Source: a virus. From it: a stretch of DNA of 64,000 nt. The notes below the pieces were generated by a model that was given only the letters and a program-made list of their open reading frames with translations, did no database searches and was not told the origin of the DNA. This document shows positions 13,960 to 61,090 of the stretch, in pieces. Made by a program: the position numbers and the translations under genes. The DNA lies in the IMG/VR virus record IMGVR_UViG_3300028800_000061, positions 64,001 to 128,000 of that record; one strand, given 5' to 3'. Within the stretch, counting starts at the first letter, position 1, and each line of letters opens with the position of its first letter.

Positions 13960-14928
13960 ATGGCAGCACGAGCAGCAATAGCGAAAGAAATCGCGACACC
14001 CTTCAGAGCACCGGCAGGCGACAGTGAGCCGCCTGCCGGCGTGAGGAAACCCGCCTCAGTCAAACTCGCCGCCGCAGCCACAATCGCCGCCAACCCCGAG
14101 CTCCCCGGGCTGGAAGCCGAGTGGATGCTGGTCACACCGGAGCAAGCTGCGGAGTGGCTGGCCGAGTGGAACGAAAGCAACAGATCACGTCGCGACGACC
14201 ACTCCGAAGCGCAGCACCGGGACATGCTCAACGGCGACTGGATGATCAACGGCGCCACCCTCGTGTTCGATCCGGACGGCAACATGCTCGACGGCCAGCA
14301 CCGTTGCGAAGCCATCGTCAAAGCCGCCCAGGCCCAGTGGTCACTCATCGTCCGGGGCATCCCCAAAGAAGCTCAGACGACCATGGACAGCAACACCCCC
14401 CGCAGGCCGGGCGACCGGTTCGCGTTCGATCGCGTCCCCCACCCGACCGTCGTCGCGGCGCTGGCCCGCCGCTGGTGGGCATGGGAACGCGGTGAGCGCG
14501 CCCAGATCGGCCACGCCCGGCCTACCCACCGGGAGATCCTGCACGCGCACCGCGACCACAGCGAGCAGATCCTCGCCGCGGCCGAGTTCGCCGCGGCGGC
14601 ACGCTCAGTGAAAGAGCTGCGCAAGGCAACCACCACGGTGTGGGGCACAGCGTTCCTGATTTTCACTGAGACATCCGACCAGGCAACGGCCCGGTTCTTC
14701 CTCGAGCACGTCCTCTCCGGCGAGGACCTCGGCAAGGGCAACCCGATGCTGGCGCTGCGGAACCGGCTCATGTCCGCCGCAGTCCCCCCCGGCGAAGCGC
14801 TCGGCGAAGTCAAACTGCTGTACCTGTTCATCGCCGCATGGAACCTCTTCCGGGGCGGCCAGACCGTTGAGCGACTGCAACTCCCCAAATACGGGGTGTC
14901 CGGAAAGAACTTCCCAGAGCCATACTGA
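13960..14928 (+). CDS. ParB/Sulfiredoxin-like domain protein
   Basis: VTPEQAAEWL..NR..W..NG.TLVFD.DGNMLDGQHR..AI; RBS AAGGAG. Confidence 0.8.
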   Translation: MAARAAIAKEIATPFRAPAGDSEPPAGVRKPASVKLAAAATIAANPELPGLEAEWMLVTPEQAAEWLAEWNESNRSRRDDHSEAQHRDMLNGDWMINGATLVFDPDGNMLDGQHRCEAIVKAAQAQWSLIVRGIPKEAQTTMDSNTPRRPGDRFAFDRVPHPTVVAALARRWWAWERGERAQIGHARPTHREILHAHRDHSEQILAAAEFAAAARSVKELRKATTTVWGTAFLIFTETSDQATARFFLEHVLSGEDLGKGNPMLALRNRLMSAAVPPGEALGEVKLLYLFIAAWNLFRGGQTVERLQLPKYGVSGKNFPEPY

Positions 14929-14941
14929 TCACCATCTGATT

Positions 14942-15052
14942 CGTCGCGGGTTTAGCCCCCCGGCGCCCGCGGCGGCGCAACCCCCCATGTGGCGGGCGGG
15001 TTGCGAAGGTCCCCGGCAGGGCTACATCTCCCGTGACCCTGCCGGGGGCCGC
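14942..15052 (+). terminator. three tandem GC-rich hairpins after the ParB-like gene
   Basis: CGTCGCGGG/CCCGCGGCG, CGCAACCC/GGGTTGCG and CCCCGGCAGGG/CCCTGCCGGGG. Confidence 0.4.
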
Positions 15053-15428
15053 ACCGCATACAAGGTCATACCGCCGTAACTGAACGGTGACCGCAGGTCA
15101 GTAATCTCCTGACAGGCCGGAAACGTCCAGTTAGTAGCGGGCAGCCTCACATGCCAGCGCACCCCTGGGATGCACCCCCGGGACTGCGCTTCGAGCCGCC
15201 ACCCTGATGACACCAGGACAGGACCCTTGACCGGCCACAATAACGCCCCGACTCCAGTAGCGGAACCACCAACCCCGCAATGGTCCCAATCCGCACAGCA
15301 ACAACAAGCTGGCCTCGACGCACTGGTGGACACCGCGGTCGGTGCCGCGCTGACCCGCCCGTTCGCCTCAATCACTTTGCCGGCATCGAATCCAGGGTCA
15401 CGCCGGCGTAGAAACCAGGAGACATCTC

Positions 15429-15548
15429 GTGCGCGCGTTCCTGCCCACCCTCATGATGATCACGCTCGGGTCGGTGGCTGTGACGGCGATAGTCGTGGTG
15501 CTGGCCCGGCACACATGGCGCCGCGGCAAATCACTCCGGGAGCCCTGA
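15429..15548 (+). CDS. 39-aa single-TM peptide upstream of the glycosyltransferase
   Basis: AGGAG RBS then GTG; VRAFLPTLMMITLGSVAVTAIVVVLARHTWRRGKSLREP; too short for the ORF track. Confidence 0.45.
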   Translation: MRAFLPTLMMITLGSVAVTAIVVVLARHTWRRGKSLREP

Positions 15549-16948
15549 ACGCCCACTACAACATCCCGGTCTGCTCCCTGCGTCGACGGGAGGCCCGCGG
15601 CATCATCCTGACGTCGATCCTTCTCGCAGGCATGGGAGTTCGCTTCGGGTTCCTGGTCGCCTCGTACCCTGCGTTCTGGCCGCTAGAGGCTGTCTGGCTG
15701 GTGCCGCTCGCCAGCATGGCATTCCAGTGGACGGTGTCATGGCGTGACCGGCCCGTGGCTCCTGATCCCCGGGTGGAGCGCTGGCTCGCGCGTCTCAACG
15801 TCACGGTCAACATTCCTGTCTACAACGAGGACCCCGCGCTCCTTGACCGATGCTTGTTCGCGCTCATCAACCAGTCCAGGCCACCTCAGAGAATCGACGT
15901 GGTCGATGATGGCTCGAAACTCGACTACACCCTCCTGCGATCCCATTGGGAACGGCAGTGGCCAGGTGGCCCTGAAATCCGGTGGTTCCGCCAAGCAAAC
16001 GCCGGGAAGAAGCATGCGCAATCCCTGACGTTCGCCAGCGCTCCCAACGCCGACGTCTTCGTGATCATCGACTCAGATACCTGCCTTGACCACCGGGCGC
16101 TAGAGGAAGGGCTGCGGCCGTTCGCCAACCGCAGCGTCGCCTCGGTGGCAGGCATCGAGCTCGCGATGAACGCGGCCAAGAACTGGCTCACCAGGACTGT
16201 CAGCGTCCGCGCCCTGTTTTTCCAGATGCTCCCCTGCGCCGCGCAATCGGCAGTAGGTGACGTGCTCATCAACAGGGGTGCGTTCTTCCTGATCCGGGCT
16301 TCGGTTGTCCGAGAGTATCTGCGGGCATACCTGGACGAGACGTTCCTTGGCCGGCCGATAAAGCTCGGCGATGACGCTGCGCTCACCCTGTTCGCCCGGG
16401 CGAGTGGCCGGACCGTGCAGCAGTCCACCTCGTTCGGCCTCACCATGTACCCAGAGACCCTCTCGCACCACTTGCGGCAGTGGACTAGGTGGATGCGCGG
16501 CTCCACAATCCGGACCGTGTGGCGGCTCCGGTATCTCTCCCCGCTGACTTTCGGCTGGTGGTTCAGCGTGCTGGGGGTCTACTCGCTCTGCATGTCTACA
16601 GCTTTCCCGGTGATGCTCACCGTCATGTGGCCGAACTCCGAGCGGGCTATCGAGTACGTGATCGCGGTCATGATCCTCTGGGGTTACGTTTACGGCCTGC
16701 GGTCCTTGTCGATCCGCCGCAGCGACCAGACCTTGGCCTACCAGATCGGATCCTTGCTGGCTTATCCGTCAGTGCTCCTATGGGGACTCTTTGTGCTGCG
16801 CCCACTCCGGTTCTACGGCACGTGCACATTCCTCAAGCAGAACTGGGTGACGCGCGTCAACGGCGCTGAGATCGTCTTGGCTCCCCAGGCGCCAGAGCCT
16901 CACGCCGCCGGCGCACCGGAAGCGGCCACAGCCGGCGTTGCCCCATGA
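15515..16948 (+). CDS. processive GT2 glycosyltransferase (hyaluronan synthase/NodC-like)
   Basis: IPVYNEDP, VDDGS, NAGKKHA, DSD, LGDDAALT and QWTRW (D,D,D,QxxRW), flanked by TM segments; start uncertain (ORF open from 15170). Confidence 0.9.
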   Translation: MAPRQITPGALNAHYNIPVCSLRRREARGIILTSILLAGMGVRFGFLVASYPAFWPLEAVWLVPLASMAFQWTVSWRDRPVAPDPRVERWLARLNVTVNIPVYNEDPALLDRCLFALINQSRPPQRIDVVDDGSKLDYTLLRSHWERQWPGGPEIRWFRQANAGKKHAQSLTFASAPNADVFVIIDSDTCLDHRALEEGLRPFANRSVASVAGIELAMNAAKNWLTRTVSVRALFFQMLPCAAQSAVGDVLINRGAFFLIRASVVREYLRAYLDETFLGRPIKLGDDAALTLFARASGRTVQQSTSFGLTMYPETLSHHLRQWTRWMRGSTIRTVWRLRYLSPLTFGWWFSVLGVYSLCMSTAFPVMLTVMWPNSERAIEYVIAVMILWGYVYGLRSLSIRRSDQTLAYQIGSLLAYPSVLLWGLFVLRPLRFYGTCTFLKQNWVTRVNGAEIVLAPQAPEPHAAGAPEAATAGVAP

Positions 16949-17910
16949 AGCGGCGCAGCGTAGGAGCCGCCACGGTGATCGTGATCCCTGCCGCGCTGCT
17001 AGGGGTGTTCGCCGCGCTGGTAGTCGCACATCATGTGACCCAGCCGGGCATCTATACCGCACCGGCGCCTGGCACTCCCGTTCACGCCACCGCAGCCCAA
17101 GGGCGATACGTAGGCGTCTATGAGCCCGGCTCTCCAGGCTCCTACGCGCCAGTTCGGGCATTCGAGGCGACATCTGGCGTCAGGCCCAACCTTGCGCTCT
17201 ACTACAGCAGTTGGTGGGAGCCGTTCCGTTTGCAGTTCGCTAAGGCTGCCTACACGAACGGCGCCATGCCGTTCGTGCAGATGATCCCCCATGGCCGGGG
17301 CGTGTCCGTGGACAGGGTTGCCCAAGGTCAGTACGACGGATACCTGCGGACCTTCGCCGAGCAGGTCAGGCGGTACGGTCATCCGGTCGTTCTGGGCTTC
17401 GCCGCCGAAGCCAACGGGTCCTGGTACAACTGGGGCTTCAAGCATCTCTCACCGAAGGTGTGGATCGCAGCGTGGCGGCACGTAGTGACCGTCTTCCGGG
17501 AGCAGGGCGCTGACAACGTCACCTGGCTGTGGACCATAAACCGCAGCGGGAAGCGCACTGGCCCGGTCCGCGACTGGTGGCCCGGCTCCACATACGTCAA
17601 CTGGATAGGCATCGACGGCTACCTCGAGGAACCGCCGTCTACATTCAGCGGCGTGTTCGCGCCGACCATCGCCCAAGTCCGCCAGTTCAGTAACGACCCC
17701 ATACTGCTCGCCGAAACGGCAGTCGGCCCGCTCGCGGACCCAGCAGGGAAGATCCCCGGGATGTTCGACAGCATCCGGGCCGATCACCTGCTCGGGCTGG
17801 TCTGGTTCGACAAGGCCCAGCACAACGGTGTCTACCACCAGGACTGGCGACTAGAGGATGATCCGCCAGCACTCGCCGTCTTCCGGAAGGCTGCCAATAA
17901 CTTCAAATAA
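16945..17910 (+). CDS. secreted or anchored GH26 glycoside hydrolase
   Basis: GQYDGYL, AEANGSWY.WG (acid/base), WWPG..YVNWIGIDGY, PILLAET (nucleophile); ATGA overlap with GT2. Confidence 0.88.
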   Translation: MKRRSVGAATVIVIPAALLGVFAALVVAHHVTQPGIYTAPAPGTPVHATAAQGRYVGVYEPGSPGSYAPVRAFEATSGVRPNLALYYSSWWEPFRLQFAKAAYTNGAMPFVQMIPHGRGVSVDRVAQGQYDGYLRTFAEQVRRYGHPVVLGFAAEANGSWYNWGFKHLSPKVWIAAWRHVVTVFREQGADNVTWLWTINRSGKRTGPVRDWWPGSTYVNWIGIDGYLEEPPSTFSGVFAPTIAQVRQFSNDPILLAETAVGPLADPAGKIPGMFDSIRADHLLGLVWFDKAQHNGVYHQDWRLEDDPPALAVFRKAANNFK

Positions 17911-18098
17911 CCGGGACCAGGCCGCGCCCTGGCAGGAATTCAGTCATACGGCCCCTTTGGGCTTGTTAGGTCCAATGTGCCGCCGAATGACCCAGCGAAT
18001 CCCTGTAGCAGGCGGTATGGCGCTATTCTTTGACCGCCCGCAAGGTGTAACAGGTGCGATGCAGTGAATGGTCTCACGGGGCAGGGGGTGAGCATTCC

Positions 18099-19598
18099 GT
18101 GACCGTGGCAACGGTAACTCAGGCGTACAAGTACGAGCTGGACCCAACCCCCTCACAGGCGCGGATGTTCGCCTCCCATGCTGGTGGGGCCAGGTTCGCG
18201 TACAACTGGGGTATCGCCACGATCATTGCCGCACTGGATGCGCGGCAAGCTGAGAAGGACGCGGGCGCCGAGCCGACCGTTCCGGTGCCCGCCCACTTCG
18301 AGTTGTGCAAGATGTGGACGGTGTGGAAGGACACCGCCGAGTGGACCGACCGCGCTACCGGGAATGTCACTGATGGTGTGGGGTGGGTCGGGGAGAACTT
18401 CGTCGGCACGTACCAGGCGGCGTTGCGTGATGCGGCCGGCGCATGGAAAGCGTTCTTCGCGTCCCGTTCGGGGAAGCGGAAAGGCCGGCGGGTCGGCCGG
18501 CCCCGTTTCCGATCGAAAGGAAAGGCCCGGGAGTCCTTCCAGGTCCACGGCGCCGTGTTCCGGCTGGCGCCCGGGCCTTCGGCCAAGTACCCGGGCACAC
18601 GGCGGGTCCGCGCGCACACACCAGCGCCGATGGCCTCGTACATAATGCTGCCGAAGATCGGCCCGGTCCGCTCGCACGAGTCGACACGGAAACTGCGCCG
18701 CAGGATTGACAACGGCACCGCGAGGATTGTCCGCGGCACCGTAGCGAAAAACGCCGCAGGCCGGTGGCACATCGCGATCACCGCCGAGGTGCAACGGGAC
18801 GTGCGGCTGAAGCCGTCTGCCCGGCAGCTGGCGGGCGGCATCATCGGTGTCGACTTGGGTGTGCGGGACACGATCACTTTGTCCACCGGGGAGTCTGTGA
18901 AGAACCCAGCTCACCTTGAGCGCTCGCTGCGCCGGCTGGCGGCCGCGCAGCAAACTGTCGCCCGGCGTACCAGGATCGGCCGGCCGTCCTCGGCGCGGCG
19001 GTTGAAAGCTGTCGAGCGGGTCGGCCGGATCCACACCCGGGTCAGTAATCTCCGGCAGGATTACCTGCACAACCTGTCCACCCGGCTGATCCACGAGCAT
19101 GCTGGCATCGGGGTGGAAGGTTTCGACCTGCAGCAAGTTGCAGCCCGCGGCGGCAGGAGCGTGCCCCGGCGGGTGCGACAGGTGCGGAACAGGCTCCTGG
19201 CCGGATCCGCACTCGGAATGTTCCGCTGGCAACTGCAATCGAAAAGCGCCTGGTACGGGTGCCAGGTGCTGGTCACCGGCGCGCAAGCACCGTCGGGCAG
19301 GACATGCTCCCGGTGCGGGACGGCAAAAGCCACGCCGATCCCGCCCCATCTGGAGCTGTTCCGGTGCCCGCAGTGCGGCCACGTCCAGGATCGGCGGCTT
19401 AACACTGCCCTGGTTCTGGCGCAGTTCGCGCGTGAAACGAAAACGACGTCCGGGACTGGCTCGGAGTCGCTAAACGCCCGTGGAGAGGATGTAAGCCCCG
19501 GGCCCGTCCGCAAGGGCAGGACCGGGCGATCCTCGTTGAAGCGGGAAGCCCGCCCCAGGGGGCAACCCTCGGGTAAGACGGGCACCCCCAGCACGTAA
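18099..19598 (+). CDS. tnpB: solo TnpB (IS607/IS605-like) with RuvC-III Asp replaced by Arg, probably nuclease-dead
   Basis: AYKYELDPT..HAGGARFAYNW, GRPRFRSK, LPKIG.VR.HE, GVDLGV, VEG, CSRC..CPQC zinc finger, DRRLNTA in place of DRDxNAA; no tnpA nearby. Confidence 0.9.
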   Translation: MTVATVTQAYKYELDPTPSQARMFASHAGGARFAYNWGIATIIAALDARQAEKDAGAEPTVPVPAHFELCKMWTVWKDTAEWTDRATGNVTDGVGWVGENFVGTYQAALRDAAGAWKAFFASRSGKRKGRRVGRPRFRSKGKARESFQVHGAVFRLAPGPSAKYPGTRRVRAHTPAPMASYIMLPKIGPVRSHESTRKLRRRIDNGTARIVRGTVAKNAAGRWHIAITAEVQRDVRLKPSARQLAGGIIGVDLGVRDTITLSTGESVKNPAHLERSLRRLAAAQQTVARRTRIGRPSSARRLKAVERVGRIHTRVSNLRQDYLHNLSTRLIHEHAGIGVEGFDLQQVAARGGRSVPRRVRQVRNRLLAGSALGMFRWQLQSKSAWYGCQVLVTGAQAPSGRTCSRCGTAKATPIPPHLELFRCPQCGHVQDRRLNTALVLAQFARETKTTSGTGSESLNARGEDVSPGPVRKGRTGRSSLKREARPRGQPSGKTGTPST

Positions 19599-19750
19599 GG
19601 GCTGGGCGTCCCCAACCACCTGCCGAAAAGCAGGCAGCACAACTCAACAGAGGCAAGCGCAGACGTTCGACCGGTGGGCGAGGGGAGGCTCGCGAATCCC
19701 CTGCTGGCTACTGCTGATGTCCGGGACGAGGGGCCTAGCGCAGGTAACGT
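19460..19750 (+). ncRNA. putative TnpB omega-RNA scaffold and guide (3' boundary uncertain)
   Basis: AAACGCCCGTGGAG..GTAAG..TGAAGCGGGAAG..GGTAAGAC pattern overlapping the tnpB 3' end; stems GAGGAT/ATCCTC and CCTGC/GCAGG, with GCAA and GTAA loops. Confidence 0.65.
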
Positions 19751-19955
19751 CCCATGCCGGCCATGCTGGGCGAGAGGGAGATCACCAGTCACGGGGGTGA
19801 GAGGTGTAGCAGTGGTGCCCCGCGTGGCCCGGGCCGCTCACACGGAGGGGATGCGGGGAAGTGAACGACTTGCCTGGTACCGGGATGAGGGCATCGGCAC
19901 ATTGCTGGGGCTGAGAGCAGTGGCAGCAGGCCGGCGGCGAGAGCAGTAGAGACAC

Positions 19956-20005
19956 AAAAAAGGCCGCCCCTGCTACCCGGCACGAAGCCAGGTAGCAGGG
20001 GCGGC
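19956..20005 (-). terminator. intrinsic terminator of the late/lysis operon
   Basis: 15-bp inverted repeat GCCGCCCCTGCTACC/GGTAGCAGGGGCGGC followed by a T-tract on the minus strand, just after the holin. Confidence 0.85.
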
Positions 20006-59862: not shown

Positions 59863-60236
59863 TCCAACCAGCCGCAGCAGTGCAACGGCAACCAACTCAA
59901 CAGAATTGTTAGCGAACGTTTTTGCCGTTCAGATCGTGTTCGCGGCTCTTCGAATCAGCCCCGCGATCCCGTTCCGATCGGGGATGGTGACCATCCCCGG
60001 CCCCGATCACGTTCCGATCCCGGATCGCGCTCCGATCTGCCCTCGGAACGTGATCCCCGATCCGCCGATCGCACTCAGATCGCCCGCGGCGAGCGAGCAC
60101 CACCGGTCCACGACCACCCGCGGCCCGCCCGCCCAATCATGATTAGAACTTTTTCAACCCGGATCGCGTTCAGATCTGCCCCCGAATGCCCGTGCGGCTC
60201 GCGAGCCGGCGTGACCCGCGAGCCGCACAAACCCGG

Positions 60237-60778: not shown

Positions 60779-61090
60779 CAGCCACACACACCGCACAAGC
60801 AAACTCAACAGAACTGTAAACAACCAGGCACACCGCCCAGATCCGAGCGCGGTCACCCGCCCGTTCGCCACCCCATACGTTCGCCGAACAACCCCCCACG
60901 AGGACGAAAGCGAAAACCCTTCAGGGCGGGTGAGAGGCGCCGGGTACTCGGGGAACTACACCGGAACTCCTGAGGGAGCCTGCGGGAACGCTGATCGCCT
61001 GTGAGTCGCCGCAGATGGCCCTTCGCGGGGCGGGACTGCCGCACCCATTCATGATTAGAACTGCTCGGCGGGTTTTCGCACATTCTTGCG

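Follow-up and report, generated by a model that had tools for sequence, protein, structure and literature searches.

A Cas12n-related effector with a D-E-R RuvC triad and no adjacent CRISPR array in a phage genome

The locus and its effector protein

This report concerns the gene for a compact TnpB-like effector, and the RNA encoded at its 3' end, in a window of 64,000 nucleotides (nt), i.e. the whole stretch of DNA analysed here, which corresponds to bases 64001-128000 of the 159.8-kb IMG/VR virus record IMGVR_UViG_3300028800_000061, estimated to be 98% complete and labelled G000 below. The gene, present in one copy in G000, belongs to a clade related to the type V effector Cas12n, in which the third acidic residue of the RuvC site is replaced by arginine (an Asp-Glu-Arg, or D-E-R, triad in place of the canonical D-E-D). 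Upstream lie genes of the GT2 and GH26 families and downstream, on the minus strand, those for a membrane protein and a GH25 endolysin with their terminator (Table 1). An earlier reading of the sequence (the original prediction) had already placed the gene between the GT2/GH26 pair and the lysis terminator, and had described it as a solo, intact but probably nuclease-dead TnpB without a tnpA gene, comparable to the RNA-guided repressors called TldR. The lack of tnpA holds for the entire 159.8-kb record, in which neither Resolvase nor Y1_Tnp, i.e. neither a serine recombinase nor a Y1 transposase, is found, and neither are Cas1 and an I-E-type Cas2 (PF09707).

The translation contains no stops, and an alternative GTG start at 18054 would give a protein of 514 residues. 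The protein is a member of the TnpB/Cas12 superfamily, with an HTH/WED-REC N-terminus, a split RuvC nuclease and a zinc-finger TNB domain. It scores past the cut-offs of the Pfam domains HTH_OrfB_IS605, OrfB_IS605 and Cas12f1-like_TNB and of the NCBIfam model guided_TnpB (199.6 vs 100), while the best NCBIfam model, IS607_TnpB (NF038280), gives 283.1 bits, under its cut-off of 350. The AlphaFold2 model, calculated with a multiple sequence alignment of 50 relatives, has a mean predicted local distance difference test score (pLDDT) of 85.5 and a predicted template modelling (TM) score of 0.78, and its sole disordered part is the tail, residues 453-499, with pLDDT below 50. The top Foldseek matches of this model are the TnpB proteins of ISDra2 and ISFba1, with a TM score to ISDra2 TnpB of 0.78-0.83 when normalised by target length. 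Among the sequences of solved structures the best match is RdCas12n, the type V-N (formerly V-U4) Cas12n of Rothia dentocariosa (PDB 9J09), with an E-value of 3.6e-44 and 31% identity over 415 residues. The best PADLOC profile, Cas12u4, for which PADLOC has no curated cut-off, covers residues 3-489 of the protein and positions 22-479 of its own 488 with 337 bits.

Residue-by-residue alignment to solved structures, which the original prediction had proposed with ISDra2 TnpB as a reference, places Arg433 exactly at the catalytic D361 of that protein and at D484 of RdCas12n, whose catalytic residues are D287/E386/D484 (PMC12216341). The same alignment and the translation bear out the other elements described earlier, namely the RuvC-I aspartate, the RuvC-II glutamate and the intact zinc finger within the 499-residue frame, and the arginine codon of the RuvC-III motif can be read directly in the DNA.

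Table 1. Features of the effector locus (positions in the window)
Feature	Position	Strand	Remarks
GH26 gene	16945..17910	+	directly 5' of the effector; same upstream neighbour for the relative in phage G406
Effector gene	18099..19598	+	499 residues; TnpB fold, Cas12n/Cas12u4-like, D-E-R RuvC triad
RuvC-I Asp252 codon GAC	18852..18854	+	motif GVDLG; alignment to solved structures; invariant in the clade
RuvC-II Glu340 codon GAA	19116..19118	+	followed by clade-specific G-F-D (D-L-N in canonical relatives)
CCCC zinc finger	19305..19376	+	C403/C406/C423/C426, complete
Arg433 codon CGG	19395..19397	+	motif DRRLNTA; RuvC-III catalytic position
Conserved guide-RNA scaffold, tracr/omega-like	19440..19652	+	overlaps the 3' end of the reading frame and extends ~54 nt past the stop; alignment with 11 relatives
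Rfam RF03015 Transposase-2 RNA	19538..19610	+	across the stop codon; 48.1 bits vs gathering score 42.7
Anti-repeat strand CGTCCCC	19607..19613	+	just past the stop
Hairpin CCTGC-CGAAAA-GCAGG	19619..19634	+	read from the sequence
Single degenerate repeat-like unit	19665..19692	+	aligns with the first repeat of relatives; 18/28 identical to the L007 repeat
Hypothetical guide position	19693..19725	+	by register with the first spacer of relatives
Non-coding G-rich stretch	19693..19960	+	268 nt, no repeats, up to the lysis terminator
Intrinsic terminator of the minus-strand lysis genes	19963..20005	-	
D-E-R loci with an array			L006-L010, L012, L013, L015-L018, L021, L022

The D-E-R clade and the arrays of its members

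The arginine at the RuvC-III position is found in 116 of the 120 best database matches, within the motif [DP]RRxNTA, and D252 and E340 are invariant in them; of 243 homologues with at least 380 residues, 135 are D-E-R and 86 D-E-D. In a FastTree phylogeny, whose tips are cluster representatives, one clade of 134 tips with a support of 1.0 contains 133 D-E-R proteins, and four proteins with the canonical D-E-D triad make up its sister group; P0002 and P0003 form a trio with the window protein (66% and 65% identical to it, respectively). The residues D252, E340, R432, R433, N435 and A437 are invariant in the clade. Across the 243 homologues a non-acidic RuvC-III goes together with two further features, E-G-[WFY]-[DN] after the RuvC-II glutamate in place of the canonical E-D-L-N, and NTA in place of NAA. 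The substitution is thus not a recent point mutation, as the original prediction had argued from the codon, and homologues do share it; by the same token, the picture of a lone degenerate TnpB is refuted, since the arginine is common to about 134 representatives. The invariance of D252, E340 and R433 shows that the RuvC site is still under selection. The window protein itself shows no sign of relaxed constraint, since it differs at none of the 59 invariant positions and at only five of the 141 near-invariant ones (conserved in at least 90% of the clade), a mid-range count for the clade, and the five changes are all conservative.

Members of the clade come from Actinomycetes and from large phage-like contigs, many of the carriers being contigs of 115-285 kb. 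The gene is rare in the bacterial genomes sampled (2 of 401 Actinomycetes genomes), and five bacterial genomes each have a single high-scoring copy. A tnpA was found neither in G000 nor at the ten loci for which genes had been called. A mobile insertion sequence (IS) element is rejected on account of the lack of tnpA of either type in the phage, the single copy and the array-linked relatives, with no search aimed specifically at IS ends. The resemblance to IS607/IS1341-type TnpB with its omega RNA extends to the fold, the set of domains and the RF03015 motif at the 3' end; unlike such proteins, the window gene remains under the IS607_TnpB cut-off, has no tnpA, is single-copy and array-linked in relatives, and reads DRR rather than DRD in RuvC-III. 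Those clade members that have names are annotated only as TnpB or transposase. A group of Cas12n-like proteins with the D-E-R triad was found neither described nor tested in the literature that we searched, a search to which the supplementary tables of the census by Altae-Tran et al. did not belong; as that census lists many V-U branches, some of them with altered catalytic sites, the clade may already be catalogued there.

DNA was obtained for 16 D-E-R loci, the window included, and 13 of them carry a CRISPR array directly 3' of the scaffold and on the same strand (Table 1). The arrays begin 60-105 nt past the stop codon and comprise from 5 to ~20 units, with repeats of 28 nt that end in GGGGACGACGG or a close variant and spacers of nearly always 33 nt. 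The three closest relatives with DNA (L016, L017 and L018) are all array-bearing, and so are both loci of the D-E-D sister group (L023 and L024), which implies that the link to CRISPR predates the change from aspartate to arginine. The other two array-less loci are decayed, L014 by a frameshift and L011 by a larger deletion in its RNA. The spacers of the relatives had no matches in 50,697 phage records, and no self- or cross-targeting by spacers was found among G000, G405 and G406.

The 116-kb, phage-like P0003 contig has Cas1 and an I-E-type Cas2 in the interval from the D-E-R effector to a GH25 cassette: according to the gene table, the effector is followed by a gene-free gap of 1.1 kb, Cas1 (a weak Pfam match), Cas2 and then the lysis genes, whose position beside the effector resembles that in the window. 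This locus has the look of an adaptation module carried by a phage, next to an effector of TnpB size. Two further contigs show features of their own: the 283-kb L015 contig, where the D-E-R effector is accompanied by a degenerate array (at least 17 units), also carries a group I intron (L015:15251-15505, minus strand; Rfam RF00028, 71 bits), and in phage G405 at least 17 tRNA genes lie ~4.5 kb 3' of the effector and its array (L008:14067-17485, minus strand).

The scaffold RNA, the traces of a repeat and the genomic context

The conserved scaffold begins inside the reading frame, and as its conservation there, from ~19440, coincides with the disordered tail of the protein, it may well serve the RNA rather than the polypeptide. 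The RF03015 motif occurs at the same place in all 14 loci of relatives that were scanned. In relatives, the 7-nt anti-repeat just past the stop codon forms a helix with GGGGACG, the repeat's 3' part: 97.8% of the cells are paired over 13 loci, and compensatory changes are seen at two of the seven pairs, where C-G becomes U-A in L006 and L024 and A-U in L021. None of 500 shuffles reached a pairing as high, and controls in which the strand was slid gave 50-76%. The hairpin that follows is replaced by hairpins of other sequence at the same place in L007, L008, L015-L018 and L021. In the array-less L011 of Jiangella anatolica (L011:7293-7449) 4 nt separate the anti-repeat from a perfect 3' end of the repeat downstream, GGGGATGACGG, the connecting scaffold being almost wholly deleted, which amounts to a different route to a one-unit locus.

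The 11-mer AACTCAACAGA at the end of the window scaffold (19641-19651) was considered as a guide and ruled out, as all relatives conserve this element of the scaffold (in the form TAACTCAATAGCGG) and it lies upstream of the repeat. It occurs on the plus strand twice more, at 59894-59904 and 60802-60812, with 0 occurrences expected in shuffles; both distal copies lie ~25-30 nt 3' of a TTGTCCTAC...AAGGACAA palindrome and continue with AxTG.

Downstream of the scaffold, the window copy has a single repeat-like unit, whose GGGGAGG (19682-19688) can pair with the anti-repeat at six of seven positions. A hidden array was sought by fuzzy search, by nhmmer and by autocorrelation of 19661-19960, and all three came out empty, leaving only a strong GC skew. 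In the G-rich stretch beyond the unit this skew amounts to +0.216, within the top 1.1% of genome windows and similar to that of arrays, with no periodicity; the stretch could be an eroded array remnant, or a 3' untranslated region or long 3' extension of the RNA. The open reading frames (ORFs) in 19674-19983 were rejected as genes, as they are without the bias in GC content at third codon positions that real genes show. For no part of 19599-19960 was a self-target found in the phage beyond chance-level matches of up to 15 nt, and the search of metagenomes with the putative guide gave only two exact 20-mers (extending to 21-23 nt) in unrelated low-GC coding DNA that has no similarity to the window, as chance could produce in a collection of that size.

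As to the wider context, GH26 is the gene directly upstream of the effector both in G000 and in G406, two phages with just eight ORFs in common; it was not seen upstream at the G405, L015, L021, L022 or P0003 loci. The two phages share orf322 together with GH26 and the effector (13960-17910 in the window for the first two genes, and G406:C1:2209-7051), a trio that may move or recombine as a cassette. Both G405 and G406 represent near-complete genomes of viruses, the former with a structural module in common with the phage of the window. An ORF of 495 residues and unknown function, which lies outside the window (G000:C1:16968-18455), has homologues with 35-40% identity in G405 (G405:C1:92057-93334) and in L006 (L006:6403-7761), in the latter directly upstream of the D-E-R effector.

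A probable orphaned effector

With slightly better than even confidence we propose that the window gene is an orphaned CRISPR-derived effector, a member of the Cas12n-related D-E-R clade, and that its product binds DNA but does not cut it in the canonical manner. Since nearly all members of this CRISPR-associated clade are array-bearing, loss of the array is the best reading of the window copy. The family placement, the clade-wide D-E-R triad, the CRISPR linkage of the relatives, the RNA pairing and the lack of an array in this phage are established; binding without cutting and any continuing activity of this copy are inferred. In the relatives the 3' end of the gene and the ~60-105 nt downstream encode a scaffold RNA, the 7-nt anti-repeat of which pairs with every 28-nt repeat, at its 3' part, in the adjacent array with its 33-nt spacers; in the phage of the window, according to this proposal, the array and any adaptation genes would have gone and part of the last segment of the scaffold would have been deleted, to leave one degenerate repeat and, after it, unique sequence. 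The complex of protein and RNA would bind DNA complementary to the guide without canonical two-metal cutting by RuvC, which is unlikely because arginine cannot ligate the catalytic metal, and it would act as a roadblock or silencer in the manner of Cas12m. For the window copy, if it is still active, the guide could come only from the fixed sequence from 19693 onward or from CRISPR RNAs (crRNAs) supplied in trans, the source being a same-family array that the host or a co-infecting phage carries.

Several observations weigh against this proposal. Neither an array nor a repeat was found in the whole phage by fuzzy search with the repeats of eight relatives or with an nhmmer profile of 36 repeat variants. 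Between 19652 and 19665 the window lacks about 29 nt that are present in all relatives with an array, where they lie after the AACTCAA[TC]AG element and before the repeat, and one pair of the anti-repeat helix is broken; the claim of the original prediction that the downstream RNA is retained is hence right as regards the conserved scaffold with its RF03015 motif and too generous as regards the 3' part, which is partly deleted. The putative guide had no match among viral contigs, and only two matches, with two mismatches each and about as many as chance would give, in the 401 Actinomycetes genomes, a result that falls short of proving the absence of a target. The other two array-less loci with DNA, L014 and L011, show decay. 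Moreover, that D-E-R proteins do not cut is something we infer, and a working, rearranged active site could explain equally well why D252 and E340 are strictly conserved.

Cas12n is the closest of the characterised systems. RdCas12n and AcCas12n (type V-N, formerly V-U4 or c2c9) are likewise small, TnpB-like actinobacterial proteins, with an RNA scaffold that overlaps the 3' end of the reading frame and a disordered C-terminal tail, and their arrays find a counterpart directly downstream of the gene in the relatives of the window protein. Cas12n employs an A-rich protospacer-adjacent motif. However, Cas12n has the D287/E386/D484 triad and cuts DNA, whereas the whole clade described here has arginine at the third position and correlated changes beside RuvC-II; furthermore, the window copy has no adjacent array, and its Cas12u4 score is far under the 569 bits that RdCas12n obtains with the same profile, a D-E-D sister protein reaching 512 bits. 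The functional parallel is rather with Cas12m (type V-M), another small CRISPR effector with a conserved non-canonical RuvC triad (HDD in Cas12m2, HEK or HQK in clade 1), which binds DNA tightly and silences transcription without cutting, and which in clade 1 has a basic RuvC-III residue (PMC10442227). By analogy, the D-E-R clade most plausibly works like Cas12m. The two are nonetheless distant in sequence (38.8 bits with the PADLOC profile Cas12u1 and an E-value of 4.6e-4 for Cas12m4a in the PDB), the inactivation would have arisen independently in the two, and Cas12m uses crRNA alone, whereas the D-E-R family has a long scaffold.

It is also conceivable, though we regard it as unlikely, that the clade consists of active nucleases with a rearranged site, which cleave DNA or process RNA by means of D252, E340 and another acidic residue. 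One candidate for the latter is D343 of the E-G-[WF]-D motif, Arg433 then having a structural or substrate-binding role. The complete conservation of D252 and E340 over ~134 diverged sequences would be unusual for a dead site, and position 343 is aspartate in 104 of 116 sequences and has no such residue in the canonical relatives (EDLN). Altae-Tran et al. (2023) hold that conserved alterations of RuvC-III imply retained activity, and Wiegand et al. caution that alternative catalytic positions may exist. On the other hand, arginine cannot ligate Mg2+, position 343 is asparagine in ~10% of the members and serine in a few (P0121, P0133), and the conserved non-canonical triad of Cas12m serves the binding of DNA and not its cutting.

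We find it harder still to accept that the window protein is a TldR-like repressor with a fixed guide, i.e. a solo protein with one built-in guide 3' of the scaffold, which represses a promoter of the host or the phage and is possibly connected with the neighbouring GT2/GH26 surface-glycan genes. The copy is indeed solo and intact, with no relaxed constraint and no tnpA; the scaffold, the RF03015 motif and six of the seven anti-repeat pairs are retained; GH26 directly precedes the gene in two otherwise barely related phages, and the TldRs of prophages provide a known precedent. More generally, the TldRs associated with fliC, oppF or csrA resemble the window protein in the TnpB fold, the altered RuvC, the lack of a transposase, the guide-RNA gene downstream and, for some of them, the residence in a phage or prophage. 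However, TldRs have two or more changes in the DED triad or C-terminal truncations of RuvC, whereas the window protein is full length with a single change, and variants of this kind were excluded from the TldR set by Wiegand et al., the requirement for at least two changes reflecting that single ones can mislead. TldRs also have one conserved short guide that matches a promoter and a conserved partner gene, whereas the D-E-R relatives, including all the closest ones, use arrays, and no target above chance was found for the window copy in the phage, in metagenomes or in the 401 genomes. Nor does the association with GH26 imply a fixed guide, because G406 keeps an array beside GH26. The proposal of a domesticated, TldR-like solo regulator thus stands as far as the intact protein, the non-canonical RuvC-III, the missing transposase and the preserved scaffold are concerned, and is not supported with regard to the arrays of the clade, the single change in the triad and the lack of a guide-target pair, which leaves a fixed-guide regulator less well supported than an orphaned effector.

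A scenario that combines elements of the above, and to which we attach the same low probability as to the fixed-guide repressor, would make the D-E-R proteins an uncharacterised, phage-enriched type V lineage that arose from Cas12n-like nucleases and silences DNA, with the window copy reverting to a fixed-guide, TldR-like regulator in a large actinophage, kept there next to the GH26/GT2 surface-glycan module. Least credible is a decaying relic, in which a recent loss took away the array together with some of the guide RNA and the guideless, functionless protein will erode: the phage without array or repeat, the ~29-nt deletion, the degenerate repeat, the G-rich, repeat-less 268 nt as a possible eroded array and the visible decay of L011 and L014 would all suit it, and against it stand the intact reading frame with 59/59 invariant and 136/141 near-invariant positions kept and only conservative changes, the RF03015 motif above its gathering threshold, and an autocorrelation that holds no trace of a former array.

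If we return to the proposal of an orphaned effector from a DNA-binding clade, no member of that clade is less informative than the window copy, since the source of the guide of this copy is unclear; the clade as such is of real interest. If its members bind DNA without cutting, nature would independently have turned a Cas12n-like nuclease into a compact (~500 residues) programmable DNA binder, in parallel to Cas12m and TldR. Many D-E-R effectors are found with arrays of their own on phage-like contigs of 115-285 kb, and the conversion, if true, would bear both on the use of CRISPR by phages against rivals or hosts and on the question of how often RuvC is retuned rather than destroyed. With a D-E-D sister group that has the same architecture of RNA and array available for comparison, the clade offers a clean natural test of the role of the third RuvC carboxylate.

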